Source: Candidatus Nanosynbacter lyticus (GTDB lineage: Bacteria > Patescibacteriota > Saccharimonadia > Saccharimonadales > Saccharimonadaceae). From it: a stretch of DNA of 32,000 nt. The notes beneath the pieces were generated by a model that did not search any database, had not been told where the DNA came from, and saw nothing but the letters and a program-made list of their open reading frames with translations. The DNA is taken from contig NZ_CP007496.1 in NCBI RefSeq assembly GCF_000803625.1, forward strand, positions 540,001-572,000, written 5' to 3'. Of this stretch, positions 9,755-31,383 are shown piece by piece (the stretch's first letter is position 1; every line of letters starts with the position of its first letter). A program made the translations under genes and the position numbers.

Positions 9755-9970
9755 ATGGTAAAACAGAAGAAGAAACGCAATAAAAAATATTCTGGCGCAG
9801 ACGCTACAGTTCAACGACCAAAAATAACACGTATCACAGCAGCAAATCGCTCCAAATTATCTCAATGGCTATTTGACCGAAAGAAGATTATTCGCATAAT
9901 TGGCATAACCTTGCTAATTGTCGCTGCAATTATAATTACTGTTTCTGGAATCGTCAGCCTATTTCGCTAA
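9755..9970 (+). CDS. Small Lys-rich, C-terminally TM-anchored protein (hypothetical, 71 aa)
   Basis: MVKQKKKRNKKYSG...IIRIIGITLLIVAAIIITVSGIVSLFR. The start is chosen at the in-frame ATG placed 6 nt after a TATAAT. The upstream part of the tracked ORF (9683-9754) would cover that promoter. Confidence 0.5.
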   Translation: MVKQKKKRNKKYSGADATVQRPKITRITAANRSKLSQWLFDRKKIIRIIGITLLIVAAIIITVSGIVSLFR

Positions 9971-12126: not shown

Positions 12127-12137
12127 GCTAATGCTTA

Positions 12138-13499: not shown

Positions 13500-13506
13500 G
13501 TCAAAA

Positions 13507-13515
13507 ATTATACCA
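13507..13515 (-). promoter_or_regulatory. Extended -10 promoter (TGgTATAAT) of the methyltransferase-like/kinase operon; leaderless geometry
   Basis: The minus strand reads TGGTATAAT-ttttgac-ATG(13499). Confidence 0.55.
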
Positions 13516-13524
13516 TAATTATTA

Positions 13525-13533
13525 TGCTATACT
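13525..13533 (+). promoter_or_regulatory. Extended -10 promoter (TGcTATACT) of the response regulator; leaderless geometry
   Basis: TGCTATACT-tagagc-ATG(13540). It sits back to back with the divergent promoter 15 bp away. Confidence 0.55.
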
Positions 13534-13539
13534 TAGAGC

Positions 13540-13914
13540 ATGATAAAAATTGCCATCATTGAAGACGACCCAACCATCAGCCAGATGTACCGAATGAAAT
13601 TTGAGTCAGATGGATTTGAAGTCCGCCTGGCGGCCAACGGCCAGATTGGTATAGAAGTTGTCGAAAAATTCCAACCAGATATCATTCTACTGGATTTACA
13701 AATGCCAGAGATGGATGGCACAGAAGCCTTAAAACACATTAGGTCTAAGGATTGGGGGAAAACTATTCCCGTTATTGTCCTGACTAATTTAGGCGAAGAA
13801 GAGGCGCCGCGCGAATTGAAAAAACTAGGCATACACAGCTATATCGTAAAAGCCAACCTTACACCGCGCCAAGTCGCTGAGCAAGTTAAATCTGCTATAA
13901 AGACTACTTCCTAA
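13540..13914 (+). CDS. Stand-alone receiver-domain response regulator (CheY-like, no output domain)
   Basis: Acidic pocket IIEDD, phospho-acceptor Asp in IILLDLQMPEMDG, T in VLTNLG, K in YIVKA. At 124 aa there is no room for an effector domain. Confidence 0.88.
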   Translation: MIKIAIIEDDPTISQMYRMKFESDGFEVRLAANGQIGIEVVEKFQPDIILLDLQMPEMDGTEALKHIRSKDWGKTIPVIVLTNLGEEEAPRELKKLGIHSYIVKANLTPRQVAEQVKSAIKTTS

Positions 13915-15740: not shown

Positions 15741-17546
15741 ATGGATCCATATTTTTACACAGAAAAACCAAAATACCAACTACAAGACATCGAAGATGCC
15801 TCTGAATTTTATGACATCATTGAACGTAGTAGCTTGACTCATCAGCTGTCTAGCTCCAGACCGTATATCTACTGGACGATGGAAATTTACGACAAAGCCA
15901 ACGGCATCAAAGGTGGTGGCGGCTTGGGCGTGCTGGCGGCGGACACACGGCGAGTGGCCGAAAAATTAGACGTGCCATTTGTGGTAGTGACGCCATTTTA
16001 CCGCAGTGAATCGCACCAAAAAATTACCAACCTAGAGCAGGAAGAATTTTCAGAAACTGTATCACCAAAAGACTATGGCTTTGAATACATCGACGAAGTG
16101 TCCATTAGTTCACGTGGGTTTCCTGATGCTAGTTTGAGTATTTTCAAAAAGGTACTCGGCTCAACGCAATTTATTACCATCTCAGAGCCAAACTTTGGGA
16201 AATTGTACGAAGGTGAAGGCTCGGGCGATCACCGACTTTACCAAGAAGTCGCGCTTGGATTTGGCGGCTATAAAGCGCTCAAGCTACTCGGCATCAAGCC
16301 AGCCGTCATCCAGCTCAACGAAACCGCAACAATATTTGCGGCACTGGCGCGACTGGACGAGCTATGTGCCAACGGCATGAACCTGTATGAAGCAATCGTC
16401 TACGTGCGCAAGCACACGCTCTATACCAACCACACCCTGCTACAGGCAGCTGAGCCAGAATTCCACCGCTCACAATTTGAAAAATTGGTACTGCCAAATC
16501 TCAAAAGCAACGCCGTGCGCTGCTGGCTGATGGAGCAATTTCGTAACGACCGCTTGCGACCGAATTTGCTGGCAATCGAACTGACCGAAGCCAAAAATGG
16601 TGTCAGTAAACTGCACGCACGAGTGGCGAATTTCCGCGACCGCAACAACGACAAGGTCAAATTTCACGCAATTACCAATGGCATCGACCTGGAGACATGG
16701 ACGCTACCAGAAACTCTTCAGACATATCACAATAACAATATCATAGATAAATTTGGCCTACCTACAGATGATTTTTCTCGGCAATTAAATCTCATCCACA
16801 GTGCCGATATAAGATATCTAAAAAAGCTGGGGCGTAAAGAGCTCAATCGAGTTTTATTAAAACGCCAGGATCAATACAACAAATCCATCCAGGTCCCAGA
16901 AAATGCAATATTATTCGACTTCAAGCGGCGATTCGCCAATTATAAACGACCCTACATGCCATTCGAAAACCCCAACGCACTACGGCAAATCCTAATCAAT
17001 CACAACGCGCACTACATACTGACAGGAAAAGTCCACCAGGGCGACGTAACTATGTACCAAAAACTATTAGAGGTCCTAAAGTTAATTGATCAAGATCCAG
17101 TTCTACGCGAAAGAGTTCATTACATACAAGATTATGATGAAGAATTAGGACGAGCCTTAGCAATCGGATCTGACATCGCCATAAATATACCTATTGTTGG
17201 ACTAGAGGCCTGCGGGACATCATGGGAAAAAGATATCGCTAACCTAAAAATACTTATTTCCACGAACGATGGCGGCGTAGCAGATATTCAACCAATTGCC
17301 TGCTTGGAAGTGTCTGGTAAAAATTATGAGGCTGAGGTCTTATCGCTATACGTTAATATGCATAAAGCTGCAGCCATAGTGAAAAATGATCAGCTGCTGG
17401 AAAAACATATACGTCACCAGTTAAATAATTACTTACCAATAATTTCTGGCGCCAGGATGATGAAGGATTATCTAAAATTTATATTTCCCAAAACACAAAC
17501 TCAGCCTAAAAAAGAGCCCTCTGTTAAGCGAATTGTTATTCAATAA
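15741..17546 (+). CDS. glgP: Alpha-glucan (glycogen/maltodextrin) phosphorylase family protein, GT35, short form (601 aa)
   Basis: GGGGLGVLAADTRR (the GGLG.LAGD-type motif), NGVSKLHA, ITNGID. GLEACGTSWEKDIANLKILISTNDGGVADI aligns by eye with the EASGTxNMK...TLDGANVEI PLP-lysine region. Confidence 0.7.
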   Translation: MDPYFYTEKPKYQLQDIEDASEFYDIIERSSLTHQLSSSRPYIYWTMEIYDKANGIKGGGGLGVLAADTRRVAEKLDVPFVVVTPFYRSESHQKITNLEQEEFSETVSPKDYGFEYIDEVSISSRGFPDASLSIFKKVLGSTQFITISEPNFGKLYEGEGSGDHRLYQEVALGFGGYKALKLLGIKPAVIQLNETATIFAALARLDELCANGMNLYEAIVYVRKHTLYTNHTLLQAAEPEFHRSQFEKLVLPNLKSNAVRCWLMEQFRNDRLRPNLLAIELTEAKNGVSKLHARVANFRDRNNDKVKFHAITNGIDLETWTLPETLQTYHNNNIIDKFGLPTDDFSRQLNLIHSADIRYLKKLGRKELNRVLLKRQDQYNKSIQVPENAILFDFKRRFANYKRPYMPFENPNALRQILINHNAHYILTGKVHQGDVTMYQKLLEVLKLIDQDPVLRERVHYIQDYDEELGRALAIGSDIAINIPIVGLEACGTSWEKDIANLKILISTNDGGVADIQPIACLEVSGKNYEAEVLSLYVNMHKAAAIVKNDQLLEKHIRHQLNNYLPIISGARMMKDYLKFIFPKTQTQPKKEPSVKRIVIQ

Positions 17547-19059
17547 CTACTTCAATTTCAGCACCCAAAGAATTTAAGCGAGCAGCCAGTTCTTCGTAGC
17601 CACGGTTAATTGAATACACATCCCTTAGAATAGACACGCCTGGCGCCGCCAGCATCGCAAGCAATATAACAACAGACGGACGAAGCGCTGGTGGAGCAAC
17701 AACATCAGCAGATTTCCATTTTGTTGGACCAGTGATATAAACGCGGTGCGGATCGACTAGCTCAATTTGCGCGTTCAACTTACTAAGCTCGGTGAAATAA
17801 ATTGCTCGGTTTTCATAGCTCCAATCATGCACCAACGTACGACCTTTAGCAACCGTTGCAATAAGCCCCAGAAACGGCAGATTATCCATATTAATTCCAG
17901 GAAACGGCAAAGCATGCAGCTTGTCTTTGGCGGCCTGGAGCTTGGAGCGATACAGCATAATGTCCACCAAACGAGTCTGCCCATTGTCAGCCAGATATTC
18001 CTCGCTCAGCTCAAACTTAAGACCCATCTCTGCTAACGTAGCTAACTCAATTTCCAAAAACTCAATTGGTGCACGACGAATAGTAATTTCTGAATCTGTC
18101 ACCACGCCAGCCGCAATAAAACTCATCGCCTCAATTGGATCTTCGCTTGGGTAATAATCCAAATTTTTGCTAATTCGTTTACGTCCTGTAATTTTTAGAG
18201 TCGTCGTTCCAATTCCCTCTATTTTTACACCCAGCTTCTTTAAGAAAAAGCAAACATCCTGAACCATGTAATTTGGGCTAGCATTGCGAATGATAGTCGT
18301 ATCTGGAGAAAGCGCCGCCGCCATAATAATATTTTCAGTTACTGTATCGCCACGCTCCGTTAAAAGAATCGTCCGATCGCCAGAATGGACATTGGTTTTC
18401 GCATGATAATAATCAGTTTCTGCCGTTACACTCATGCCAAAATGTCTTAACCCGCTCAAGTGAGGCTCCACTGTGCGCTTACCCAAGTTACAGCCGCCCG
18501 CAAACGGCAGCTTAAAATCCTCATATTGGTAAAGTAGTGGGCCTAGGAACATAATCACCGTACGCGTACGCTTAGCAGCGGTAATATCCATATCCTCCAG
18601 CTTTAGCCTAGCAGGGGGAATAATCTCCAAATCACTACCGTTCAACCAGCGAGTTTTAACACCAATTGAATTTAGAACCTCAATAATCCGATTAACTTCC
18701 TCAATTCGTGCCACCTTCCTGAGGGTTGTCTTACCCTTATTTAGCAAGCTTGCGCAAAGGAGCCCCACTGCAGCATTTTTACTTGTCTTGACCTGTATCT
18801 CACCAGACAATTTTTTTCCGCCAGACACTCTAAAATTCATTTTTCCAGAATGATTCACAGTCACGATATTATTATTAAGCACTTCACTAATACGAGCAAT
18901 CATCTCAATACTAATATTCTGACCACCGTTTTCAATACGATTAATGGCACTCTGAGATGTACCAATTGCTTCAGCCAACTGCATCTGCGTTAACCCTTGC
19001 TTTTGGCGATTTTCAGCAATTAAATTGCCGATTTTTTGAAGATACTTATCTTTTATCAT
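17536..19059 (-). CDS. murA: XRE-family helix-turn-helix domain fused in frame to UDP-N-acetylglucosamine 1-carboxyvinyltransferase (MurA)
   Basis: Residues 1-73 carry an HTH_3 motif: GLTQMQLAEAIGTSQSAINRIENGGQNISIEMIARISEVL. From M74 (MNFRVSGGKKLSGEIQVKTSKNAAVGLL...) the protein is a full MurA, with the KNAA lysine, the FAGGCNLGKR active-site Cys/Arg loop, and ALRPS. No stop separates the two parts. Confidence 0.85.
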   Translation of the reverse strand: MIKDKYLQKIGNLIAENRQKQGLTQMQLAEAIGTSQSAINRIENGGQNISIEMIARISEVLNNNIVTVNHSGKMNFRVSGGKKLSGEIQVKTSKNAAVGLLCASLLNKGKTTLRKVARIEEVNRIIEVLNSIGVKTRWLNGSDLEIIPPARLKLEDMDITAAKRTRTVIMFLGPLLYQYEDFKLPFAGGCNLGKRTVEPHLSGLRHFGMSVTAETDYYHAKTNVHSGDRTILLTERGDTVTENIIMAAALSPDTTIIRNASPNYMVQDVCFFLKKLGVKIEGIGTTTLKITGRKRISKNLDYYPSEDPIEAMSFIAAGVVTDSEITIRRAPIEFLEIELATLAEMGLKFELSEEYLADNGQTRLVDIMLYRSKLQAAKDKLHALPFPGINMDNLPFLGLIATVAKGRTLVHDWSYENRAIYFTELSKLNAQIELVDPHRVYITGPTKWKSADVVAPPALRPSVVILLAMLAAPGVSILRDVYSINRGYEELAARLNSLGAEIEVVIE

Positions 19060-20394: not shown

Positions 20395-20409
20395 TTCCTA
20401 AAACATAAT

Positions 20410-20443
20410 AAAACTCCGGTACTATGACCGGAGTTTTATTATT
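20410..20443. terminator. Bidirectional rho-independent terminator between glyA (+) and the pilin gene (-)
   Basis: AAAACTCCGGT-actatg-ACCGGAGTTTT, an 11-bp stem with T-rich runs on both strands. Confidence 0.8.
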
Positions 20444-20456: not shown

Positions 20457-20882
20457 TTAACAGCCAGTACCAACTATGCGAGTCTCAACAGTATTCTTAC
20501 TGTAGTCGTAGTACTCAATCTTTGCACCCGTTGGGTCGCCGGTACCACACTTAGTGTATTTAACTGTTGTAGTTGGAGTACTTGAACCAAAAGTACCAGT
20601 ACCTAATTCAGCAACATTGGCTGGAGCAATGTAGTAAGACTTCTTTGTGTCTGCACCAGTCAAGTCTGAAACCTGAGCTGGATACTTACCCTCTTCGGTG
20701 TTGTACAGTTCAGCTTTCTTAGCAACTGAGTCAACTGTTGATTTAGCAGCTGATGTCTTTGCCTGGTTCTGCAAACCGTTGTATGCAACCAAAGAAACAA
20801 CTGTCAAAATCGCGATAATCACGATAACAATCAAAAGCTCAACGAGCGTAAAACCTTGATTTTTAATATTCTTTGTAGTCAC
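20457..20882 (-). CDS. Type IV pilin (major-pilin candidate; PilA/PilE-like)
   Basis: Class III signal MTTKNIKNQG|FTLVELLIVIVIIAIL with Glu+5. C-terminal Cys pair (KCGTG...GTGC) typical of the pilin D-region. GTG start with AGGGGG SD 10 nt upstream. Its own 78-nt upstream spacer and a strong terminator. Confidence 0.85.
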   Translation of the reverse strand: MTTKNIKNQGFTLVELLIVIVIIAILTVVSLVAYNGLQNQAKTSAAKSTVDSVAKKAELYNTEEGKYPAQVSDLTGADTKKSYYIAPANVAELGTGTFGSSTPTTTVKYTKCGTGDPTGAKIEYYDYSKNTVETRIVGTGC

Positions 20883-20960
20883 GATAATGTGCCCCCTAAA
20901 TTGTGTTAGTTTGATTTGTAATTTGATAATACTACAACGTATTTAAAAGCGCAAGCATTT

Positions 20961-22691
20961 TTAATATATATATCGATTCTGGACTGGACGAAGGAATAAT
21001 GACTCTGTTGGACTAAACCTATTATTCTCACTACCTGAAGTTCCGTCACCAATCTGCCCATTATCATTTAATCCCCAACAGTAAGAACGCTTATTTGTCA
21101 TAATTGCACAACCGCGGTTTGCTCCCGCCGCAATGTCCACTACCGACTCTGTTGGCGGCAATCCACCAATACCAACATAAACAGGCTTCGGACTGGTAGA
21201 AAATTGTGGAGTATTAGAATTAATCCCCAGCTGACCAAGCTTATTATCACCCCAGCAATATACCTTCTTATTGCCATGATCGTTCACTAAGGCACAAGAG
21301 TGAGCAATCCCAACCTCAATTCGTAGCGGAACTCCCGGTAGACTATTAACTTGTACTGGCTGAAAATGCGCACCAAAGGCACCATGGCCCAGAGGACCAG
21401 ACTGCCCGCGACCAGCACCACCCCAACAATACACCTTACCTGAGGCAATAGCGCAGGTATGAGATACGTAGGCATGATCTGACGCCCAAGTATAACCATC
21501 TTGAGATATATCAGTTACATTTTCTAAGTCCTTAACTCGAGTAGCGTAACTGTAGTGATTACCAGATATTGGACCAATACCCATCTGGCCAAACCTGGCT
21601 AGACCCCAACAATAAGCCCTTTTTTCAGTAGTTATAGCACACATTGTTTGCGAGCGCGATCCACCGGTTGCCAACTTAGTTGCAAAATAATTACTAGGAA
21701 GTCTATTATGGCCGCCTGAGTTAATCTGCACTGGCGTAGCACGAAATCCAGGGTTTCCAGGATTTCCGAAGCCCAATTGGCCCATATTGTTCCGACCCCA
21801 GCAGTAAATTTTACCAGACACAATAGCACAGGAGACGTCACCAGTTCCTCCAATTGACGTAACGTCTTTACCTACGAGAGCGCCACCAACCTCAACCGGA
21901 ACACTAGAATAATTACCCTCCCCAGATGACCCATTGCCTAGCTGACCGTCTTTATTACTACCCCAACAATATACTTTTTTATTACTGCCCAGCTGAGTTA
22001 GTACGCAGCTGTGGTGCTGTGCTGTAAATATATCAATAATCTTTCCATATTTCATGTCACCAACAGAACGAACTTTTACTGGAATATTGGAGTCGTTGGT
22101 AGTGCCATCCCCTAATTGACCCATATTATTACTACCCCAACACCATACGTTGTTTGACAGAATCGCACAGGTGCGGTTAGTGCCACTCACTGTGCGCGTT
22201 GCGTCGATATCAGCCGGCCAGGTCACAGACTTTTTAACAATAACTGTATAGGTTTTTATTACTCTGCTACCGCTCATCACTTCAGTTCTACCAATAGCGG
22301 AAATCTGAGCAGTAGCGGCTGACAGTGCTGACGCTTTAGTCGAAGCCTCTAATTTACCAACCTCAAAATTTGTTCGCAATTTACCATTTTCAAATACATA
22401 TTTATTCCCACTAAACTTTACCGCCCCCAAACAGTCAGTTTCCGGGCGAAGCGGGCCTGCACTGCCGGCAGCTGGAGTCCACGATTGCTCTGCATTATTA
22501 GCATCCAGACAGGCGTTGGCATATGCTGTACCCGCCTCACCAGCTTCTTGGGCTAATTTATAATAATATTCCTCCTGCGAGTAGATATATGACTGCGTCA
22601 CAACTCTCATAGCGCCCGCCAAAACCACTAATATAAAGGTGCTCATAAGCACGATTAGCACCAAGGAGTAGCCGTCTTTTTTTCGCATCAT
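20961..22691 (-). CDS. PilX/GspK-like minor pilin module fused to a seven-repeat RCC1-type beta-propeller
   Basis: N-terminus MMRKKDG|YSLVLIVLMSTFILVVLAGAM has no Glu+5. It is followed by a PilX-like helix and sheet (AQEAGEAGTAYANACL ... IGRTEVMSGSRVIKTYTVIVKK). Seven RCC1 repeats follow: WCWGSNNMGQLGDG, YCWGSNKDGQLGNG, YCWGRNNMGQLGFG, YCWGLARFGQMGIG, YCWGGAGRGQSGPLGHG, YCWGDNKLGQLGIN, YCWGLNDNGQIGDG. Confidence 0.8.
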   Translation of the reverse strand: MMRKKDGYSLVLIVLMSTFILVVLAGAMRVVTQSYIYSQEEYYYKLAQEAGEAGTAYANACLDANNAEQSWTPAAGSAGPLRPETDCLGAVKFSGNKYVFENGKLRTNFEVGKLEASTKASALSAATAQISAIGRTEVMSGSRVIKTYTVIVKKSVTWPADIDATRTVSGTNRTCAILSNNVWCWGSNNMGQLGDGTTNDSNIPVKVRSVGDMKYGKIIDIFTAQHHSCVLTQLGSNKKVYCWGSNKDGQLGNGSSGEGNYSSVPVEVGGALVGKDVTSIGGTGDVSCAIVSGKIYCWGRNNMGQLGFGNPGNPGFRATPVQINSGGHNRLPSNYFATKLATGGSRSQTMCAITTEKRAYCWGLARFGQMGIGPISGNHYSYATRVKDLENVTDISQDGYTWASDHAYVSHTCAIASGKVYCWGGAGRGQSGPLGHGAFGAHFQPVQVNSLPGVPLRIEVGIAHSCALVNDHGNKKVYCWGDNKLGQLGINSNTPQFSTSPKPVYVGIGGLPPTESVVDIAAGANRGCAIMTNKRSYCWGLNDNGQIGDGTSGSENNRFSPTESLFLRPVQNRYIY

Positions 22692-23515
22692 AAGTTATTA
22701 ATCTTTCGTATAGTTAATGTTTGTGATTCAGAAATCTGTTTACTTGGCGACTGTAATTTTAAAGTAACTACTACATTATCAGCAGAATCAAGTATCCCTG
22801 GGTAGCTTTTAACTACATCGTATTGATCAGGTATTTTCGTTTTCCCCTCGTAATACTCAACTTCGAATTCAGAAACACCGGTTGCTAAAATTGAATCTTG
22901 ATGAACCTTCATGGCTCGGTCTTTAAATTTATTAGCCTCTACATTATTCATACAGAAATAATTACCAGCAGACCCCGAGTATGGATGTCCATACGGGTCA
23001 ATCATGTCGTTATAGATAGTACGTCTATGCAATTCTCCGTTATTTAAGAAATATATTATTATTTTTTTATACTTAGGCTGCTGAGTCTTCTTAGTCGCAC
23101 AGTCGCCGCCTGGAGTTCTTAGATAAACAATCTGCCTCGAGTCTGCACCATGTCCCATAGTGGTCGCATATTGTAGCAATATCAGGACCCTATTTGTCCC
23201 GTTGACGTATGGTGTATTCATGTAGCTCCAGCTATGCCCAGCTCCAGAAAAACTCCTATCTACAGCGAACGTATCATAACCGTCATAGCCACTGGCTTTA
23301 AATCGCACTGCCTGCCGTACATCAGTTTCAATTGCATCCATGGAGTTGTGAAGATTGCGGTTAATATCAACCCTAGCCCGACTAATAGAAGCGCTTTGAT
23401 TTGACGAGACCAGCATCTGGCTAAAGACACCGACGACCATAGCAATAATTACCATTACTAATACTAATTCGGTTATTGTGAATCCATTTTCTTTAGAATG
23501 CTGCGTATGTTGCAT
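22688..23515 (-). CDS. Minor (pseudo)pilin, PilW/GspJ-like by size and position
   Basis: MQHTQHSKENG|FTITELVLVMVIIAMVVG prepilin N-terminus with Glu+5. 275 aa. 4-nt overlap with the downstream gene. Confidence 0.75.
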   Translation of the reverse strand: MQHTQHSKENGFTITELVLVMVIIAMVVGVFSQMLVSSNQSASISRARVDINRNLHNSMDAIETDVRQAVRFKASGYDGYDTFAVDRSFSGAGHSWSYMNTPYVNGTNRVLILLQYATTMGHGADSRQIVYLRTPGGDCATKKTQQPKYKKIIIYFLNNGELHRRTIYNDMIDPYGHPYSGSAGNYFCMNNVEANKFKDRAMKVHQDSILATGVSEFEVEYYEGKTKIPDQYDVVKSYPGILDSADNVVVTLKLQSPSKQISESQTLTIRKINNL

Positions 23516-23960
23516 GTGTCACCTTTCTTCCACTGCCAACCCCAGAAGACGGCAATCCATATTCTACTACTGACTCTACCTTAACCGGCATACCTAAGCT
23601 AGACTTGCCACCACCACTACTACTAGCATCCTTACATCCATACGGCGCCGAAGCATACACCTCCTGCCTCACCATACCTGGCAAGCCATCAACACTCTCC
23701 GTTCTTTCCATAACTCTATATCTAGTACCAGATGAACCAGTGTTACACTTAAACCATGACGGCGGAGAGTCGTTCGCGTAACGACGCATATTATTGTAGG
23801 CCAGAAAACTTGCCTTCGTTTGCTGCGCACTCAATACTGAAATTGTACTGACCTGAGCTTGCATACTTAATATGACAACCATAAAAATACCAATAACAAC
23901 CAGTGTCACTGCCACCTCAACTATTGTAAAGCCCTCGCTTCTATTTACTAGTCGCGCCAT
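23493..23960 (-). CDS. Minor (pseudo)pilin, PilV/GspI-like by position
   Basis: MARLVNRSEG|FTIVEVAVTLVVIGIFMVV prepilin N-terminus with Glu+5. 23-nt overlap with the downstream gene. Confidence 0.75.
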   Translation of the reverse strand: MARLVNRSEGFTIVEVAVTLVVIGIFMVVILSMQAQVSTISVLSAQQTKASFLAYNNMRRYANDSPPSWFKCNTGSSGTRYRVMERTESVDGLPGMVRQEVYASAPYGCKDASSSGGGKSSLGMPVKVESVVEYGLPSSGVGSGRKVTHATYAAF

Positions 23961-24433
23961 ATACTATCCACCTTTTTTTCTGCCCCAGTGGACAAATCTT
24001 TATACGTGATACTATGCCTGACGCAAGTTGCTGCAACTATATCAGATGGCGCGCCAGATGCCGGCTTAGTGCAGTCATGTCCATCAATATTTGAGGCTTC
24101 ATATAATATTTCGCCGTTACTTCCGCCAGCCCAGTCGCTACGACTACACTTTATCATTTCCTTTTTCAAAGAATCGCCTCCTACAATTGACGAAAAATTC
24201 CTGGTTAAATCACCACACGACGGATATTCATGCCCGATGCCGCTTGTATTGTTATATTTATAATACCTCTCCAGCTTTAGTGATAGCTCGGAAATATTAG
24301 CTCGCTGTTTTTCTCTTTTAATGAGATTTGAAAATCTTTCACTACCAACAAAGGTGAGGCCCGCTAAAATTGACACGACTACAATAATTATCGCCAACTC
24401 GATTAACGTATAACCACCCATCCTACGATTCAT
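23948..24433 (-). CDS. Minor (pseudo)pilin, FimU/GspH-like by position
   Basis: MNRRMGG|YTLIELAIIIVVVSILAGL prepilin N-terminus with Glu+5. The start is placed at ATG 24433, since the tracked ORF starts 2 codons earlier at a TTG that would lie inside the promoter spacer. Confidence 0.75.
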   Translation of the reverse strand: MNRRMGGYTLIELAIIIVVVSILAGLTFVGSERFSNLIKREKQRANISELSLKLERYYKYNNTSGIGHEYPSCGDLTRNFSSIVGGDSLKKEMIKCSRSDWAGGSNGEILYEASNIDGHDCTKPASGAPSDIVAATCVRHSITYKDLSTGAEKKVDSIWRD

Positions 24434-24440
24434 ATTCAAT

Positions 24441-24446
24441 ATTGTA
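24441..24446 (-). promoter_or_regulatory. -10 element (TACAAT) of the minor-pilin operon; leaderless geometry
   Basis: The minus strand reads TACAAT-attgaat-ATG(24433). There is no TGn extension at the canonical position. Confidence 0.4.
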
Positions 24447-24475
24447 GCGCAGTTTTACAAAAAAGCCTATGCTTA

Positions 24476-25501
24476 TTACAAAGAAAGTTCCAACGGTTCT
24501 TGTTCAATTCTTATACCAAATTTATCATACACCGTTTGAATAATTTGCTCACGAATTGCCGCTAAATCGCCATAGCCAGTTGCCGACTCATTTACCAGCA
24601 CAAGAGCATTTTTTTCATAAACCCTCATACCATGACTAGCAAAACCTTTCAGTCCAGCTCTATCAATCAGCCAGCCTGTTGGTACTTTATATCTTCCGTC
24701 AGACATAGCATAATTTGGCACATCACTATACTCTTTTTGCAGTTGTTCCAATTGCCATTTTTCGATCAAAGCGTTCTTGAAAAAAGAGCCTGCGCTAGGT
24801 ATCTCAGCCGGATCTGGCAATTTTTCCGAGCGAATATTAAGCACCGCTACACGAATTACCGACAAATTAACTTCACGAATATCATTATCTTCAATATATT
24901 TTTGTAGCGAAGCATAAAATGGCGGCCTTGGTTCTGCTTTATTTAATCTTAGAGTAATATTTAAAATACAGTAACGGCCCTTTTGACTATCACGAAAAAT
25001 ACTATTGCGATAAGAGAAATCACATTCATCAGCAGAAATCGTCACAATTGAATCAGTTTTCGAATCGTATGCTTCTAAACTAACTAAAGTATCAGCGATC
25101 TCTTGTCCGTAAGCGCCAACATTCTGAACGGGTGCAGCACCGGCAGTTCCCGGAATTCCCGACATAGCCTCAATTCCCTGAAGCCCCAGACCAACAGCCC
25201 GTTCAACAACTTCATCCCAAACTTCGCCCGCACCAATCTTGATATCTGTCGTATCGTCATTATCAGCAACGACCTCAAACCCCTCGATCTTATTCAACAG
25301 AATGATTCCCTCAAATGTTTCGTCGCGTGTGATGACATTACTGCCGCCACCCAGCACAAAGATGGGTAAATTTTCCTTTCGGGCATTCCGATATAAAGTT
25401 ACAACATCGCTAGCAGAATTTACAGCCACCATATAGCGTGTTTCACCGCCTAATTTCATAGTCGTATACTGCTTCAATGGTACGTTCGTCATGACATCCA
25501 T
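24476..25501 (-). CDS. murB: UDP-N-acetylenolpyruvoylglucosamine reductase
   Basis: LKQYTTMKLGGETRY, VLGGGSNV and GIEAMSGIPGTAGAAPVQNVGAYG are typical MurB FAD-binding and substrate motifs. Confidence 0.9.
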   Translation of the reverse strand: MDVMTNVPLKQYTTMKLGGETRYMVAVNSASDVVTLYRNARKENLPIFVLGGGSNVITRDETFEGIILLNKIEGFEVVADNDDTTDIKIGAGEVWDEVVERAVGLGLQGIEAMSGIPGTAGAAPVQNVGAYGQEIADTLVSLEAYDSKTDSIVTISADECDFSYRNSIFRDSQKGRYCILNITLRLNKAEPRPPFYASLQKYIEDNDIREVNLSVIRVAVLNIRSEKLPDPAEIPSAGSFFKNALIEKWQLEQLQKEYSDVPNYAMSDGRYKVPTGWLIDRAGLKGFASHGMRVYEKNALVLVNESATGYGDLAAIREQIIQTVYDKFGIRIEQEPLELSL

Positions 25502-25507
25502 GTGTAT

Positions 25508-25516
25508 ATTATATCA
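25508..25516 (-). promoter_or_regulatory. Extended -10 promoter (TGaTATAAT) of murB; leaderless geometry
   Basis: The minus strand reads TGATATAAT-atacac-ATG(25501). Confidence 0.55.
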
Positions 25517-25536
25517 TTTTACTCGGTCGCCATCTA

Positions 25537-25545
25537 TGCTATAAT
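25537..25545 (+). promoter_or_regulatory. Extended -10 promoter (TGcTATAAT) for the tRNA-Arg pair
   Basis: TGCTATAAT lies 10 nt upstream of the tRNA-Arg(UCG) 5' end. Confidence 0.5.
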
Positions 25546-25555
25546 ACCTCTGTAT

Positions 25556-25632
25556 GCACCCGTAGCTCAGCGGATTAGAGTACTTGGCTTCGAACCAAGG
25601 GGTCGCAAGTTCGAATCTTGCCGGGTGTACCA
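25556..25632 (+). tRNA. tRNA-Arg (anticodon UCG), CCA encoded, G1-U72 wobble
   Basis: Acceptor GCACCCG/CGGGTGT, anticodon arm CTTGG-CTTCGAA-CCAAG, T arm GCAAG-TTCGAAT-CTTGC, A73. Confidence 0.88.
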
Positions 25633-25656
25633 TTTTATTGAATTAACAAGACACAC

Positions 25657-25733
25657 GCCCCGTTAGCTCAACTGGATAGAGCGTTGGTTTCCGGTACCAA
25701 AGGTTGCAGGTTCGATTCCTGTGCGGGGTACCA
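25657..25733 (+). tRNA. tRNA-Arg (anticodon CCG), CCA encoded, G1-U72 wobble
   Basis: Acceptor GCCCCGT/GCGGGGT, anticodon arm TTGGT-TTCCGGT-ACCAA, T loop TTCGATT, A73. Confidence 0.88.
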
Positions 25734-25739
25734 GATTAG

Positions 25740-25760
25740 CCCGTTATTGTGACGGGTTTT
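25740..25760 (+). terminator. Short hairpin plus T4 after the tRNA-Arg pair
   Basis: CCCGT-tattgtg-ACGGG-TTTT. The stem is 5 bp and the T-tract is short. Confidence 0.4.
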
Positions 25761-25818
25761 AATTATATCTATAAATTGCTTACTTTTTATATTAAATAGT
25801 GGTATAAATGTGAGCACT

Positions 25819-26544
25819 ATGGAGACCGGCAAACAAAGACCCGCAAATGATTTCCATAGCGCAATGGAAGCAGTTATAAAAGCAATACGCGAGAAAAAAT
25901 TCGGACAAGCGGCGATATTAGCCTCCCCGGCCTATAATTTAACACCAAACTTATCCGAACAAGCCCGTGCTGCCCGTGATTTAAGTGCCGCCTACCGCCA
26001 TCAAGGCGACTACGATGAATCCGAAAAATGGGCCACTGAAGCAGTGGAGCAACATGAAGCTTTGGTCGAAGAAGGAGAGAATCGCAGTACGCTACGTGAA
26101 CTGGGTGCGAGCGTCGCAACGCTCGGAACCCTGCAGCTACAGCATATCGTAACAGACCCTTCTTATGATAATCAGGAAAACTCTCAACGGGCAGCAGAAA
26201 ATCTAAGCAAAGGTCTGCGCTATATTGAAGAGTCTCGCGAGCATGCTGCAGACAAGAACCGCAAGATTGACCAATATGACATTAACTTTACTGCTCGTAC
26301 AGGCTTCGCTGAAGCGTTGGCTGGCGATACAAAGAGGAGTCTAGCACTGGGCGCAAGAGCTGTGCGGTTGGCGTTTTTGTCTGAATCACCAAAGATTGAC
26401 ACTTCAAATCCAAATATGACAGCCAAAGAACGCTTCAAATCTAAGGCTCGCGCGTTTGTAAGAGGCGTTGGCGCGGTAGCTGTGGCGGCAGTGGCGCCAT
26501 CTAATAGGGAGTTGGCTAAATCTATTGTCGAGAGGCTTAATTAA
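25819..26544 (+). CDS. Hypothetical all-helical (TPR-like?) protein
   Basis: A 244-aa tracked ORF starting at GTG 25810. I prefer ATG 25819 because TATAAA (25803-25808) sits immediately upstream. I recognise no family motif. The C-terminus has an Ala/Val-rich segment (FVRGVGAVAVAAVAPS). Confidence 0.5.
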   Translation: METGKQRPANDFHSAMEAVIKAIREKKFGQAAILASPAYNLTPNLSEQARAARDLSAAYRHQGDYDESEKWATEAVEQHEALVEEGENRSTLRELGASVATLGTLQLQHIVTDPSYDNQENSQRAAENLSKGLRYIEESREHAADKNRKIDQYDINFTARTGFAEALAGDTKRSLALGARAVRLAFLSESPKIDTSNPNMTAKERFKSKARAFVRGVGAVAVAAVAPSNRELAKSIVERLN

Positions 26545-28979
26545 TTGGCCGATGGAATCACTGGAGCTTGAGGAGTTTGGCTACTTAAAATCTGACGAAT
26601 TTGCTCAGCGGTAATAATTGTAGTTGATCCAGGCGCAATTGTACCAGCTAGCATTTGCTTAGCGACAGTATTCTCAACCGCTCGTTGGACAACGCGACGC
26701 ATCGGACGGGCGCCCAGGCGCGGATCGTAGCCAGCTTCAACCAATAGCTTCTTACCTTCCTCTTCAACTGCAACTTGAATTTTTTGCGGTGCCAAAGTTT
26801 TATTAACACCAGCCAAAATCAAATCGACGACCTGCAATAGCTCCTCCTTGCCTAGCGGCCGGAACAAAACAATTTCATCAAAACGGTTCAAAAACTCTGG
26901 TCGGAATAGGTTAGCGTTGATTAACTCATCAATAAACGTTTGCTCAAATTGCTCCAGCTGATAACCACGCTCGATATATTCACGAATTCTATCCGCTCCA
27001 GCGTTTGACGTAGCAATGACAATCGTATCGCGAAAACTAATTTCCCGGTTATTTTCATCACGCAGGATACCCTCGTCCAATAGCTGCAGTAAAGTCGTCA
27101 ACACCTGCGGATGAGCTTTTTCAATCTCATCCAGTAGCACCACTGAAAACGGCTTTTTTTGCACCTGAGCCGTCAAGCTACCTGAGTCGCGCGCCCCATC
27201 GGCAATCAGCCGCGCTACATCATCTGGGCGGACAAACTCGTTTAAATCTAAGCGAATCATACTACCTTCGCCGCCAAAATAAACATCCGCCAAAGCTTTG
27301 GATAATTCAGTCTTACCAACACCAGTCGGACCGAGGAACAGGAAAGCGCCAATTGGGCGATTTTGGTTCCTAACGCCAGTACGCGCCCGACGAATAGCAT
27401 CGGAAACAACCGTAACCGCCCGCGACTGATTAATCATGCGCTGGTGAATCAGAGATTCCAAATTCAGCAGCTTTTCCCTCTCGTCACTTAGCGATGCCAC
27501 GGAAATCTTTATACCGAGTGTCTTCTCAATAGCGTCATCCACTGATTGTGCCGTCACCAGCCCATCACTAGCATAGCTTGCCGCTGCCTCTAAAATTTTT
27601 AGAGCCTTACCCGGCATTACCAAGTCCTGAACATATCGATCGCCCACTCGGTAAGCCTCCGCCAAAGCTTGATACATATACCTAACTTTATGTTGTGCCT
27701 CAAACAGCACCAGTTGATCACGCATAATTTTCATAGTTTCCGATTCACTAGACGGCTGAATAGCGATGGTATTTAAGGCGTGAGCTAGCTGCGGTTTAGT
27801 CTGAGAAATTTGCAAGAAACGCTGCTCGTCCATTGTCAAAATCATCCTCAATCTGCCAGCTTCTAGAATTGGCAGTAGTACATTACTCAAATCAACAGAA
27901 CCAACGCCCTCTTCAAAAAATAGCTGTGCATTATCCAGGCATAAAATAACATTCTTTGATAAAAACGCCTCATTTAAGATCATTGTTACCAGATTTTCCA
28001 ATTCACCGCGACCCGACGCTACGCTAACCAAAGATGAAGAGTCAAGTATAAAAACTTGCTGATACATCAACGACCCAGGAACGCCCTGATGTCCATCAAT
28101 CAACATCTCTGCAAACGCCGAAACTACCGTACTTTTCCCAGCGCCATCAGCACCAATTAACGCAATGTTCTGACGACCACCTGAGCTAAATATTTTCATC
28201 ATTTGCTCAAGCGCACTTTCATGCGCCGCCAACTTTGTAGTAAGCATCTGACCGGAAATGTTAGCGCTAATATTCTGCGCAAAGCGGCTCAGCAGCGGAG
28301 TATAACCGAACGACCAATCTCTGGCAATTCCGCCAGTCCGTAACGGTTTTTTGTTATGCTCTTCAATTAATGCCTTTATACGCTCGTACCACTTGATAGT
28401 CTCTTCGATATCCTGAAAATCAATTTTCATATTTGCCAGCAACGAATCATGCTGCGGCAACTGTTTTACTATAGCCGCGGCTAAAACCGCACTGGTAATC
28501 TTCGGACTTTTAGTGCTCTGCCAAATCTCAATTGCCGCTTTCCAGACCTGCTCGGTTTGGTCTGGATTGTCAACGGAAATATTATGTAAAAAGTTTGGCG
28601 TTAAACCCAGGCGCAAGGCTAAAAACTGTCCAGCTCGAGTGCCCGTAATCGCTTCAGCAATATCAGTTGGTGTTGGTCGGCGTGGCAACTTCCCCAAAAC
28701 GTCAGCCGCCATCACATCATCAATAGTCTGCGGATTCTTATTAATCTCCGCCGTCTTCAAATCTTTCTCCCACCAAATAGACAGCATAACCATCGGACCG
28801 CTTAGACCCAGCATCAGCCAGCCGACCGATCCGTGTTCAATCAGCATCCACACCCCAAGCACCACTATCATGATACCAATTGCTATTACCACAACGTGCC
28901 AAGCATTGCCGAATCTAACTGAAAACCTTGCCTTTTGGGACCTCAAACTATCGTAATTAAATTTTGGCTGCACATTCAT
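26541..28979 (-). CDS. Membrane-anchored double-AAA+ Clp/Hsp100-family ATPase (atypical: 2 N-terminal TM helices, no M-domain, no ClpP-docking tripeptide)
   Basis: TM helices WHVVVIAIGIMIVVLGVWMLI and WLMLGLSGPMVMLSIWW. Clp_N-like repeats. D1 Walker A IGADGAGKST and Walker B ILCLDNA. D2 Walker A LGPTGVGKT and Walker B VVLLDEIEKAH. D2-small ARPMRRVVQRAVEN. The start at ATG 28979 forms an ATGA overlap with the upstream gene's stop. Confidence 0.85.
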   Translation of the reverse strand: MNVQPKFNYDSLRSQKARFSVRFGNAWHVVVIAIGIMIVVLGVWMLIEHGSVGWLMLGLSGPMVMLSIWWEKDLKTAEINKNPQTIDDVMAADVLGKLPRRPTPTDIAEAITGTRAGQFLALRLGLTPNFLHNISVDNPDQTEQVWKAAIEIWQSTKSPKITSAVLAAAIVKQLPQHDSLLANMKIDFQDIEETIKWYERIKALIEEHNKKPLRTGGIARDWSFGYTPLLSRFAQNISANISGQMLTTKLAAHESALEQMMKIFSSGGRQNIALIGADGAGKSTVVSAFAEMLIDGHQGVPGSLMYQQVFILDSSSLVSVASGRGELENLVTMILNEAFLSKNVILCLDNAQLFFEEGVGSVDLSNVLLPILEAGRLRMILTMDEQRFLQISQTKPQLAHALNTIAIQPSSESETMKIMRDQLVLFEAQHKVRYMYQALAEAYRVGDRYVQDLVMPGKALKILEAAASYASDGLVTAQSVDDAIEKTLGIKISVASLSDEREKLLNLESLIHQRMINQSRAVTVVSDAIRRARTGVRNQNRPIGAFLFLGPTGVGKTELSKALADVYFGGEGSMIRLDLNEFVRPDDVARLIADGARDSGSLTAQVQKKPFSVVLLDEIEKAHPQVLTTLLQLLDEGILRDENNREISFRDTIVIATSNAGADRIREYIERGYQLEQFEQTFIDELINANLFRPEFLNRFDEIVLFRPLGKEELLQVVDLILAGVNKTLAPQKIQVAVEEEGKKLLVEAGYDPRLGARPMRRVVQRAVENTVAKQMLAGTIAPGSTTIITAEQIRQILSSQTPQAPVIPSAN

Positions 28980-29350
28980 AGCGAAACCCCCATTTGCCAC
29001 AGCACAATTCCCACAAACGGCAATAGCGGCAAGATCAGCCACAGAATAATTCCCAGAATCATCCACAAAACCCTCAGTAATATCATCAATATTCCGACAA
29101 TTATCACTACAGAGCGTACCACCATGCCAACCACGCGTGAAAATAACTTATCGAAAAATGCCGACAACTGAACTGGCGCAGCACCGCCAACTGGAGACGC
29201 TGAAATCTGACGAAACGGATTAAATAACGTTTTTAATAACAATCCGACCGAAAAAAAGTCTGCCGTTCGCAAAACCCCCAAAAAACCTTGCTGAATGTGT
29301 TGCAATAATCCACTGCCATACCACCACTGAAAGATCCCCACCAAAAACAT
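28976..29350 (-). CDS. Small polytopic membrane protein (hypothetical, ~124 aa)
   Basis: MFLVGIFQWWYGSGLL...FFSVGLLLKTLFNPF...VVGMVVRSVVIIVGILMILLRVLWMILGIILWLILPLLPFVGIVLW. The start is set at M18 of the tracked ORF, 6 nt after TGCTACAAT. The stop overlaps the Clp-like start (ATGA). Confidence 0.6.
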   Translation of the reverse strand: MFLVGIFQWWYGSGLLQHIQQGFLGVLRTADFFSVGLLLKTLFNPFRQISASPVGGAAPVQLSAFFDKLFSRVVGMVVRSVVIIVGILMILLRVLWMILGIILWLILPLLPFVGIVLWQMGVSL

Positions 29351-29356
29351 ATTGAT

Positions 29357-29365
29357 ATTGTAGCA
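29357..29365 (-). promoter_or_regulatory. Extended -10 promoter (TGcTACAAT) of the membrane protein/Clp-like operon; leaderless geometry
   Basis: The minus strand reads TGCTACAAT-atcaat-ATG(29350). Confidence 0.5.
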
Positions 29366-29381
29366 TATTAGCCCAGCAGAG

Positions 29382-29387
29382 TATAAT
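29382..29387 (+). promoter_or_regulatory. -10 element (TATAAT) of murT-gatD; leaderless geometry
   Basis: TATAAT-ggattat-ATG(29395). The alternative ATG at 29386 overlaps the hexamer itself. Confidence 0.45.
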
Positions 29388-29394
29388 GGATTAT

Positions 29395-30657
29395 ATGGCA
29401 AGACAGATGATCAGTACTATAATTGGCAAAGGGGTCAAGAAGGTTGCAAGATTACGCGGCGGCGGTTCAGCTCTGCCAGGCTTAGTGATTGAGAAAATTG
29501 ACCCAAAGTTCATCCAGCGCACACTGAAAGACCTACCACAAGGCGTGGTAATTATCAGCGGCACTAACGGAAAAACAACAACCACAAAAATCGTCGTGGA
29601 ATTGCTCGAGTCAGTTGGATTAAGGGTTTTTACGAATCGGACTGGCAGTAATTTTTCCCGAGGCGTAGCAGCTGCGCTGCTGGACGAAGTCAACCTCCGT
29701 GGTAAACTGGAAGCCGATATTGCAGTCCTGGAACTTGACGAGGCCTGGGCGGTGAAATTTGTGCAAATGGTTCGCCCACGATTCTCGCTATTATTAAATG
29801 TGATGCGCGATCAGCTAGATAGATTTGGAGAGATTGATAATACAGCGTCGCTGCTTCAGAAAATAGCCGAAGCAACTACCGATACTGTTGTTCTTAATCG
29901 CGACGATCCACGGATTTTTAAGATTAGTAAAAACATTCAGGCTAAAAAAGTATTCTTCGGCACAACCGACGAGCTACTTAAATTAATGCCGACCGACGAC
30001 AACTTAAAATACGGTGCAGCAATTGCTAACCAAAGCGTAAACGTCGATGTTTTATTAAAAAAGATTAGCGGCCAGGAGGCGACTCTACAGATTGACAACA
30101 AAGAAACTGCTGTCAATTTAAAGCTTACCGGCGTTTATAATTTACTTAATGCCGCAGCAGCTACAGCCCTGGCGCGACAAATTACCGGACCGGAAGTTAC
30201 AGACACCATATTGTCAGCGCTCGAAAATATTAAGCCAGCCTTTGGTCGCGGTGAAACAATTTTCCTAAACGGCACTCCAATTGAACTTATTCTCGTTAAA
30301 AATCCAAGCGGTTTTCGACTGGCGCTTTTGTCATTTGCCAAAAATAGCAGCGCGACGATGATCGCGGTTAATGACAATTACGCAGACGGGCGAGATGTTA
30401 GTTGGTTTTGGGATGTTGACTTTTCGGCTCTGAAAAAGGTAGCCATGATTAGTGGGGTGCGCGCTTATGACATGGCGCTGCGTCTTCAATATGACGAAGT
30501 TGCGATTGAAAAAATTGACACCGATATTACGCGGGCGTTAGATGATTTTATCAACGACCGCCCAGAAGAACCAAAGCAAATATTCTGTAGCTATACCGCC
30601 ATGACTGCAATTCGACGCCTGCTTAGCGAAAAAACCGACGTAGAGGAAATATTATGA
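29395..30657 (+). CDS. murT: Lipid II isoglutaminyl synthase subunit MurT (Mur-ligase family with C-terminal DUF1727)
   Basis: ISGTNGKTTTTKIV P-loop, LNVMRDQLDRFGE, and the C-terminal DNYADGRDVSWFWDVDF motif. ATGA overlap with gatD. The start could also be ATG 29386, three codons earlier. Confidence 0.85.
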   Translation: MARQMISTIIGKGVKKVARLRGGGSALPGLVIEKIDPKFIQRTLKDLPQGVVIISGTNGKTTTTKIVVELLESVGLRVFTNRTGSNFSRGVAAALLDEVNLRGKLEADIAVLELDEAWAVKFVQMVRPRFSLLLNVMRDQLDRFGEIDNTASLLQKIAEATTDTVVLNRDDPRIFKISKNIQAKKVFFGTTDELLKLMPTDDNLKYGAAIANQSVNVDVLLKKISGQEATLQIDNKETAVNLKLTGVYNLLNAAAATALARQITGPEVTDTILSALENIKPAFGRGETIFLNGTPIELILVKNPSGFRLALLSFAKNSSATMIAVNDNYADGRDVSWFWDVDFSALKKVAMISGVRAYDMALRLQYDEVAIEKIDTDITRALDDFINDRPEEPKQIFCSYTAMTAIRRLLSEKTDVEEIL

Positions 30658-31379
30658 CAAAAATAACAATTGCACAACTTTATCCACGAGACATGAATTT
30701 ATACGGCGACTGGGGTAACACGCTGGTCCTAAAAAAACGCCTAGAGTGGCGCGGTTTTGAAGTCGAAATTATCGACCACAATCCAGGCGATTCAACAGAC
30801 TTTTCTAAGATTGATATTTTCGTCGGTGGTGGCGGTCAAGACTCTGGCCAGACGATTATCCAAAACGACCTTTTGAAACGAGCAGACGAGCTCCAACAAT
30901 TAGCAAACGACGGCGTGCCGATGCTAATGATTTGTGGTATGTATCAGCTCTTCGGCCGCTTTTTCCGCACACTTAAGGGCGAAGAGATTGTTGGCGCTAA
31001 TATTTTACCGATTGAAACAATTGCTGGCGAGGAACGAATGATTGGCAATATTATTATCAAGAGCCAAGAATTTGGCGAGATTATCGGATACGAAAATCAT
31101 AGTGGGCAGACCTTCCTTGATAAAACTGTCACGCCGCTAGGGCAAGTGATTAAGGGTGCTGGTAATAATATGATTGATACGAATGAAGGCGTTCGGTATA
31201 ACAATGTTATAGCCACATATCTCCACGGCCCAATCCTACCGAAAAACCCACAAATTGCTGATTTTCTAATCAATGAAGTCCTAAGACGACGCGATATCAG
31301 CATAGACTTTGGAGTAGATAATATTGACGATGAGATAGCCCACAAGGCACGTGAAATATCCCTAAAACTTCCCAGATAG
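30654..31379 (+). CDS. gatD: Lipid II isoglutaminyl synthase glutaminase subunit GatD (CobB/CobQ-like type 1 GATase)
   Basis: Nucleophile elbow MLMICGMYQLFG, YENHSGQT, and His in YLHGPILPKNP. Translationally coupled to murT. Confidence 0.85.
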   Translation: MTKITIAQLYPRDMNLYGDWGNTLVLKKRLEWRGFEVEIIDHNPGDSTDFSKIDIFVGGGGQDSGQTIIQNDLLKRADELQQLANDGVPMLMICGMYQLFGRFFRTLKGEEIVGANILPIETIAGEERMIGNIIIKSQEFGEIIGYENHSGQTFLDKTVTPLGQVIKGAGNNMIDTNEGVRYNNVIATYLHGPILPKNPQIADFLINEVLRRRDISIDFGVDNIDDEIAHKAREISLKLPR

Positions 31380-31383
31380 TGTA

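Follow-up and report, generated by a model that had tools for sequence, protein, structure and literature searches.

The DNA examined here, a window of 32,000 nucleotides (nt) that was analysed over its whole length, carries on its minus strand the pilZ2-pilV2-pilW2-pilX2-pilA2 operon of Candidatus Nanosynbacter lyticus TM7x, which is 'T4P locus three' (TM7x_02995 to TM7x_02975), T4P standing for type IV pilus. Very probably, this TM7x operon supplies all of the pilins of the thin, non-essential pilus T4P-2, and its largest product, PilX2, is an adhesin in which a pilin module is joined to a beta-propeller. The locus is already known, as it has been published with knockouts and cryo-electron tomography (cryo-ET) for exactly strain TM7x ('Saccharibacteria deploy two distinct type IV pili...', ISME J 2025;19:wraf119; PMC12206443, preprint PMC11623550), and 'T4P locus three (TM7x_02975-02995)' was defined there with five pilins (PMC12206443).

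The identity of the locus was established by exact-sequence look-up, which returned the 576-residue protein as AJA06892.1 ('hypothetical protein TM7x_02980 [Candidatus Nanosynbacter lyticus]'), the 141-residue pilin as AJA06592.1 (TM7x_02975) and the 155-residue protein as QCT41714.1, named 'type IV pilus modification PilV family protein'. Positions 20653-32000 of the window were 99.991% identical at the DNA level to CP040011.1 (705,178 bp), with one 1-nt indel. Two knockout primers of the published study were found in the window sequence, and the table of gene names and locus tags in its supplement agreed with our assignment (PMC12206443). Proteins, gene order and context were the same as those of the published T4P-2 pilin locus three. 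Table S1 of that study lists pilA2 as TM7x_02975 (TXSScan T4aP_pilA, 3.6e-19), pilX2 as TM7x_02980 (no match, TXSScan included), pilW2 as TM7x_02985 (T4aP_pilW, 3.7e-7), pilV2 as TM7x_02990 (BLAST to PilV of P. aeruginosa, 4e-5) and pilZ2 as TM7x_02995 (T4aP_fimT, 5.4e-8) (PMC12206443). The five genes are given below, a slash marking the prepilin junction.

23948..24439, minus strand: pilZ2 (TM7x_02995), minor pilin, MNRRMGG/YTLIEL; 163 residues from the TTG at 24439, 161 residues from the ATG at 24433
23493..23960, minus strand: pilV2 (TM7x_02990), minor pilin, 155 residues, EG/FTIVEV; 13-nt overlap with pilZ2
22688..23515, minus strand: pilW2 (TM7x_02985), minor pilin, 275 residues, NG/FTITEL; 23-nt overlap with pilV2
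20961..22691, minus strand: pilX2 (TM7x_02980), 576 residues, DG/YSLVL; 4-nt overlap with pilW2
20457..20882, minus strand: pilA2 (TM7x_02975), major pilin, 141 residues, leader MTTKNIKNQG/FTLVEL; 78-nt gap after pilX2

A preliminary description of this DNA had reported four minus-strand genes overlapping by 13, 23 and 4 nt and followed, after a 78-nt gap, by a 141-residue pilin, and this layout proved exact in the coordinates of the open reading frames (ORFs). The position at which it ended the locus, 24446, is not a start codon; public gene calls start pilZ2 at the ATG at 24433. The prepilin N-termini were as it had quoted them. In a motif scan of the 79 ORFs of at least 60 residues in the window, a prepilin N-terminus was found in exactly these five, which ruled out chance occurrence of the motif, and all five proteins carry the class III signal peptide motif of the type IV pilin and pseudopilin superfamily. 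The scan also bore out that only the fourth protein lacks the glutamate at position +5 (Glu5). This residue is present in pilZ2, pilV2, pilW2 and pilA2, which share a short basic leader, a glycine, the sequence [FY]-T-[LI]-x-E and a hydrophobic stretch of ~20 residues, while pilX2 has a leucine at +5. The Pfam model N_methyl (PF07963) matched four of the five pilins, with pilV2, pilW2 and pilA2 (1.5e-8) above the cutoff and pilZ2 at 21.0 bits against a cutoff of 21.2. PilA2, whose leader is 10 residues long and which possesses Glu5 and a pair of C-terminal cysteines (C112 and C141), additionally matched the GspG, ComGC and PilA N-terminal models of NCBIfam, and alignment of pilV2 orthologues revealed two conserved cysteines, C72 and C109.

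PilX2 falls into three parts, as follows.

22197..22691, minus strand: pilin 'carrier' module of pilX2, residues 1-165; DG/YSLVL, no Glu5; invariant Cys61 and Cys87
21012..22196, minus strand: C-terminal module of pilX2, residues ~166-560; seven-bladed RCC1-type beta-propeller, putative host-binding adhesin
20961..21011, minus strand: C-terminal tail and stop codon of pilX2, residues 561-576, ending ...FSPTESLFLRPVQNRYIY

An AlphaFold2 (AF2) model of residues 1-165, built on a 41-sequence alignment, had a predicted local distance difference test score (pLDDT) of 89.1 and a predicted template modelling score of 0.78. In it, residues 9-64 form an alpha-1 helix of 56 residues, followed by an antiparallel sheet of four strands (residues 105-111, 116-118, 126-140 and 143-158), and the topology so predicted is that of a type IV pilin. 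Across 68 diverse members of the PilX2 family the Gly(-1) before an aromatic residue was at least 90% conserved, and Cys61 and Cys87 were invariant. Comparison of the model with the PDB by Foldseek gave nothing better than E = 0.18, the likely reason being that pilin crystal structures are without alpha-1N and that the long helix outweighs the rest of the query, so that this outcome does not tell against a pilin fold. A search of PDB sequences with the profile of this module recovered no pilin and only weak RCC1-repeat matches to BLIP-II, so that the likeness to GspH/I/J/K which had been anticipated was found neither by Foldseek with this module nor by the profile searches of the PDB.

The fourth protein had been likened to GspK/PilX-type tip subunits, a view which overlooked the seven RCC1 repeats of its C-terminal part and which gives way to that of a modular protein of pilin and propeller. 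Pfam matches were to WD40_RLD (PF25390) at E = 2e-60 (205 bits against a cutoff of 150), to RCC1 at 8e-49 and to RCC1_2 (PF13540) over seven stretches, and seven CWGxNxxGQ[LMI]G motifs were visible in the pilX2 alignment. The AF2 model of this region had pLDDT values mostly of 80-95, and its best Foldseek matches were UVR8, RPGR, HERC1/2 and RCC1 (E = 1e-31), with target template modelling scores of up to 0.91 (UVR8, 0.86-0.91); it belongs with the seven-bladed propellers of the RCC1-like domain (RLD) type. No match to PF05567 (PilC/PilY1) at E <= 0.1 was obtained with any of the five pilins, in keeping with the earlier statement that there is no separate PilY1 gene. PilY1 was also absent from the top 50 Foldseek matches of the propeller, all 50 of which were RCC1-like. 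Membership of PilX2 in the PilC/PilY1 family was rejected on these two results and on its pilin N-terminus. Because RCC1 repeats are present and no PF05567 or PilY1 match was obtained, a propeller does accompany the minor pilins, but one of another family and fused to the fourth of them. By analogy, the RCC1 propeller of PilX2 is a putative replacement for PilY1 in its role as adhesin.

The tail of PilX2, PTESLFLRPVQNRYIY (20964-21011), was invariant or near-invariant in the pilX2 alignment and was kept as PTE[SA]LFLRP..N.[YF][IVL][YF] in distant RCC1-bearing relatives. AF2 models its last ~10 residues with low confidence, mean pLDDT being 57 for residues 561-570 and 25 for residues 571-576. 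A docking strand and a sorting signal are both possibilities for this segment. Many other members of the PilX2 family also end in an aromatic residue.

The role of the operon in the thin pilus is established by the published mutants. Each of pilA2, pilX2, pilW2, pilV2 and pilZ2 was deleted and all five were non-essential (PMC12206443). Every thin (T4P-2) filament was lost on deletion of pilA2 or pilB2, as judged by cryo-ET (PMC12206443). Host binding fell from 10.6% to 4.8% (pilA2), 4.6% (pilX2), 3.9% (pilB2) and 3.7% (pilC2) in the deletion mutants, and pilA2 and pilX2 are the highest-expressed genes of locus three (PMC12206443 and PMC11623550 for both). Competition with other Saccharibacteria requires pilA2 and pilX2 (PMC12206443). 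The earlier suggestion that pili are central to the organism is upheld, as N. lyticus TM7x is an episymbiont reliant on pili (PMC12206443).

No ATPase, platform protein or peptidase is encoded within the 32,000-nt window, and to this extent the description of the locus as detached from its assembly machinery stands. However, the same genome encodes PilB2 (T2SSE and MshEN, 592 residues) and PilC2 (T2SSF) from a point 7.75 kb past gatD, only ~14.7 kb away from the pilZ2 start, a position which matches locus two, TM7x_03095 onward (PMC12206443). Locus one encodes PilD, PilT, a second machinery set and the paralogues pilV1, pilW1, pilX1 and pilZ1 (PMC12206443). The search of the genome for assembly genes that had been proposed earlier therefore finds PilB2 and PilC2 in locus two and PilD and PilT in locus one, and the objection that such genes might be missing from the genome falls away.

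In the most likely mechanism, PilA2 is the major subunit and is polymerised into the thin filament by the PilB2 ATPase, the PilC2 platform protein and PilM2N2O2, all encoded ~15 kb away, as genetics and cryo-ET have shown (PMC12206443), and the prepilin peptidase PilD would be supplied from locus one. PilX2 would be cleaved by PilD in the same way as Glu5-less GspK. The Glu5-bearing PilZ2, PilV2 and PilW2 together with Glu5-less PilX2 most likely cap the filament as a tip complex of four members. Within this complex the N-terminal 165 residues of PilX2 would be the pilin 'lollipop' that serves as anchor in the filament, presumably at the tip, and the RCC1 propeller would face outward as a host-binding adhesin, with a host cell-wall glycan as its possible ligand. 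A single polypeptide would in this way do the job that in Pseudomonas falls to PilY1 riding on PilX. The reading as adhesin is supported by relatives of the N-terminal module which bear ricin-B, ConA-like, PA14, CBM and phage tail collar modules.

Several results weigh against this proposal. PilX2 has no Pfam N_methyl match, and SignalP predicted no PilD site in it (PMC12206443). Neither sequence searches nor Foldseek revealed similarity of the globular domains of the four minor pilins to GspH/I/J/K or FimU/PilV/PilW/PilX. In addition, thin filaments were kept when pilX2 was deleted, at a lowered count of ~2.7 per cell, and single deletions of pilW2, pilV2 and pilZ2 had no phenotype (PMC12206443). 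As to a glycan ligand, the preprint examined whether exogenous monosaccharides inhibit host binding by TM7x (PMC11623550), and the word 'lectin' does not occur in the ISME J version (PMC12206443). The missing N_methyl match and PilD site, along with the lack of Glu5 and the existence of a family member (P0217) as an orphan gene away from a pilin operon, would fit a PilX2 that is a pilus-independent adhesin held in the membrane by an uncleaved signal anchor, its location among pilin genes reflecting co-regulation only. We consider such an arrangement improbable. The Gly-[FY] junction is present in at least 90% of the 68 diverse family members, the N-terminal module is predicted to adopt a pilin fold with its 56-residue alpha-1 helix and sheet, and pilX2 overlaps pilW2 by 4 nt in an adjacency that is kept in ~80 genomes. 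Deletion of pilX2 moreover phenocopies deletion of pilA2, pilB2 and pilC2 in host binding. GspK is likewise without Glu5 and is a bona fide pseudopilin.

The deletion phenotypes and the missing globular-domain similarity bear on a different explanation, namely that the minor pilins form a canonical, indispensable priming complex of true FimU/PilV/PilW/PilX (GspH/I/J/K) orthologues, needed before PilA2 polymerises, and that paralogues from T4P-1 mask the effect of the knockouts. The four minor pilins do have the order and sizes of the canonical set, the fourth alone is without Glu5, the weak best matches are to FimT, PilV, PilW and GspJ, fewer thin filaments are made when pilX2 is deleted, and locus one does contain pilV1, pilW1, pilX1 and pilZ1. 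The matches themselves, however, are limited to the N-terminal helix and lie under the family cutoffs. For pilZ2 the best NCBIfam matches were GspG and GspH, at the N-terminus only (GspH 15-21 bits against a cutoff of 80); for pilV2, PilV TIGR02523 (E = 2.3e-5, 24.9 bits against a cutoff of 52.2); and for pilW2, GspJ (7e-5, 22.7 bits against a cutoff of 64.85) and Verru_Chthon cassette protein C (1.2e-5), again at the N-terminus only. All of the family matches of these three proteins were confined to the N-terminal 40-70 residues and far under the family cutoffs, and none was an equivalog-level match to FimU/GspH, PilV/GspI or PilW/GspJ that included the globular domain. Profiles of pilZ2, pilV2 and pilW2, each made from eight orthologues, matched among PDB sequences only the alpha-1 helices of assorted major pilins.

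PilX2 has the traits of GspK/PilX, in that it lacks Glu5, is the largest of the set and comes fourth and last in the order of the minor pilin genes. By sequence it could not be placed in that group: no match to PilX_N (PF14341), T2SSK or NCBIfam GspK was obtained for pilX2 or for the 68 diverse family members (E <= 1e-3), and no PDB or Foldseek match to GspK/PilX was found. The colinearity with fimU-pilV-pilW-pilX that had been claimed is thus partly supported, since the positional analogy holds and the weak matches agree with it, but these matches involve the N-terminal helix only and are under the cutoffs; orthology of the globular domains is unsupported. The earlier reading is borne out in that the locus is a type IV pilin operon with four minor pilins and a major pilin. 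An indispensable priming role is argued against because thin pili are still formed in the absence of pilX2 and single loss of pilZ2, pilV2 or pilW2 gives no phenotype. Back-up of the minor pilins by their T4P-1 paralogues is possible, yet we regard the indispensable priming complex as unlikely overall and retain the view of PilX2 as a pilin-propeller adhesin in a proposed tip complex whose members are singly dispensable.

The matches of PilA2 to GspG and ComGC N-terminal models and the presence of recAX in machinery locus two (PMC12206443) would also be compatible with an operon for a competence (Com-like) pilus or for a pseudopilus of a type II secretion system (T2SS), rather than for an adhesive pilus. 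These were rejected on the published phenotypes and we find them scarcely credible. T4P-2 mutants transform at unchanged frequency (PMC12206443 and PMC11623550), and the thin filaments seen by cryo-ET are extracellular and dependent on pilA2 and pilB2. Furthermore, no secretin, GspD or GspL context was present in the window or in the surroundings examined.

To define the family to which the PilX2 carrier belongs we used exhaustive phmmer, as a word-indexed search with the N-terminal module alone gave nine truncated fragments. At least 535 clusters of homologues at 50% identity were obtained at E <= 1e-3. In the best 150 of the 535 the match was at or near the N-terminus, in proteins of 62-1045 residues. 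The consensus of the module, G/FALPTVLI...QYYxQLAxEAAEAGxAYAxxCL...TDCxG, contains no Glu5 and has a proline at +4. The relatives of window positions 22197-22691 are proteins P0174-P0321. When the 68 family members were scanned with Pfam, the domains found were RCC1 propeller (39), Ricin-B lectin (13), Phage tail collar (8), Gly_rich_2 (8), Gp10_C (6), Laminin_G_3/ConA-like (3), PA14 (2) and CBM_4_9 (1). The gene of one family member, P0217 (L091), stands alone as an orphan beside an ATP synthase operon. The carrier family accords with the 'modular pilin' concept (PMC8179133). A previous survey of modular pilins required the signature IPR012902 (Raynaud et al. PNAS 2021, PMC8179133). It probably missed the PilX2-type family, because Pfam N_methyl, which we take as the signature behind IPR012902, does not match PilX2.

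The order of the five genes was kept in essentially all of the ~80 species-level Nanosynbacter/Saccharimonadaceae genomes where the contig permits a view, and pilW2 was conserved across the ~80 species-level genomes. The parts of the locus have not diverged evenly, with the propeller changing faster than the pilin module. Relative to TM7x PilX2, P0069 was 100% identical in the pilin module and 69% in the propeller, and P0007 was 80% identical in the pilin module and 96% in the propeller. At loci L013, L014 and L029 identity was 77-78% for PilX2 and 93-99% for the remaining four pilins, and in L085 pilA2 was 97.9% identical and the other pilins ~70%. These comparisons of sequence suggest that pilin module and propeller recombine independently among Nanosynbacter strains, with breaks at the boundaries of modules and genes, and that pilA2 alleles are decoupled as well. 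Selection acting on an exposed adhesin and on the major pilin would fit this mosaic pattern. Taken together, a Glu5-less carrier family which in PilX2 is invisible to N_methyl, which has interchangeable receptor-binding modules and which recombines independently leads us to propose, tentatively and with rather less than even confidence, that the locus works in episymbiont attachment as a host-range cassette that can be swapped, a possibility which follows from the interchangeable modules and the independent recombination.

Signals and a variable site within the operon are as follows.

20892..20897, minus strand: Shine-Dalgarno sequence AGGGGG, 9 nt 5' of the pilA2 GTG start, in the 78-nt pilX2-pilA2 gap; read from the sequence
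20405..20442, both strands: bidirectional intrinsic terminator with a 16-bp stem, common to pilA2 (minus) and the convergent glyA/SHMT (plus; SHMT, serine hydroxymethyltransferase)
23062..23068, minus strand: A7 homopolymer in pilW2, around codon 150; the one site at which CP040011.1 differs from the window

That the 141-residue pilin has its own Shine-Dalgarno sequence and a strong bidirectional terminator had been reported before and was verified here, the terminator hairpin having a free energy of -21.5 kcal/mol (z = -6.06 against shuffled sequences) and lying between an upstream A-run and a downstream U-run; the convergent SHMT ORF on the plus strand ends at 20394. A 161-residue call for PilA2 in CP040011 was rejected. 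It needs a non-canonical ATA start, and the GTG at 20882 with its AGGGGG gives the 141-residue protein, which was found in 53 contigs. Upstream of the operon (24440-24475), only 36-42 nt separate the murB stop codon from the start of pilZ2, and this interval contains no hairpin that resembles a terminator. The minor-pilin genes and murB may share a transcript; pilA2, for its part, is preceded by the 78-nt gap and by a Shine-Dalgarno sequence of its own. Because CP040011.1 carries A6 instead of A7, pilW2 is frameshifted there and its gene calls split pilW2 into 114 and 151 residues, while intact A7 pilW2 was found in seven metagenome contigs. The difference stems either from a sequencing error or from slip-strand variation in a gene whose deletion has no phenotype.

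The genes that flank the operon encode MurT/GatD, G5-DUF348 Rpf-like proteins, MurB and a helix-turn-helix (HTH)-MurA fusion, a set that by itself suggests a Saccharibacterium. The last of these (17536-19059, minus strand) is a 507-residue MurA-like enolpyruvyl transferase of the EPSP_synthase fold with an N-terminal HTH_3 domain (XRE-type), an unusual fusion of enzyme and regulator. A ClpB-like double AAA+ protein of 841 residues (26541-29066, minus strand) has hydrophobic, apparently membrane-spanning segments in its N-terminal region, where a Clp N-domain would be expected, and the gene for a small tetratricopeptide repeat protein is convergent to it with a 4-nt overlap of the 3' ends. At 9967-13914 a histidine kinase with seven-transmembrane and GAF regions (719 residues) is followed by a 453-residue methyltransferase-domain protein and a divergent stand-alone receiver (124 residues), which is a compact sensory module in a ~705-kb genome. 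An ORF of 427 residues at 4680-5963 had no Pfam match.

The locus encodes a long-range tether by which an ultrasmall episymbiont finds its bacterial host and competes for it, and in this locus a PilY1-like adhesin function appears to have been folded into a minor pilin. The biology of the locus itself has been published, and the observation of a pilin operon adds nothing new to it. What is added here is the size and modular variety of the carrier family and the apparently independent recombination of pilin module, propeller and pilA2, which may guide work on host specificity in Patescibacteria.

Among known systems, T4P-2 locus three of TM7x is the same DNA as the window, and the sole distinction is the pilW2 poly-A indel between the window, where the gene is intact, and CP040011.1. 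The locus shares with fimU-pilV-pilW-pilX-pilY1-pilE of Pseudomonas aeruginosa and with the PilY1/minor-pilin priming complex of Myxococcus four minor pilins in one operon, a fourth one without Glu5, a seven-bladed propeller adhesin that goes with the set and a pilin gene at the 3' end. In contrast to both, TM7x has no separate PilY1 gene, and its propeller is of the RCC1 type rather than PilC/PilY1 (PF05567/IPR008707) and is covalently fused to the pilin in the PilX position. Its minor pilins are singly dispensable and pilX2 is not needed for extrusion, and its envelope appears to be Gram-positive-like, judging from MurT/GatD and the G5-Rpf proteins. Unlike in Pseudomonas, the last gene encodes the major pilin and not a fifth minor pilin.

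With PilB (vWA) and PilC (ConA-like lectin) of Streptococcus sanguinis, PilX2 shares the design of a small pilin carrier with a bulky C-terminal adhesive module (PMC8179133), and for such modular pilins display at the tip and direct adhesion have been predicted (PMC8179133). It differs from them in a carrier which lacks Glu5 and is unmatched by Pfam N_methyl, and in having an RCC1 propeller as effector. The GspH/I/J/K tip complex of the T2SS also has four minor subunits, the largest of which is without Glu5 and carries an extra domain, and the third TM7x subunit has GspJ as its best match. The extra domain of GspK, however, is an alpha-helical insertion inside the pilin fold, whereas that of PilX2 is a C-terminal propeller, and the TM7x system, unlike the T2SS, makes a real extracellular pilus.

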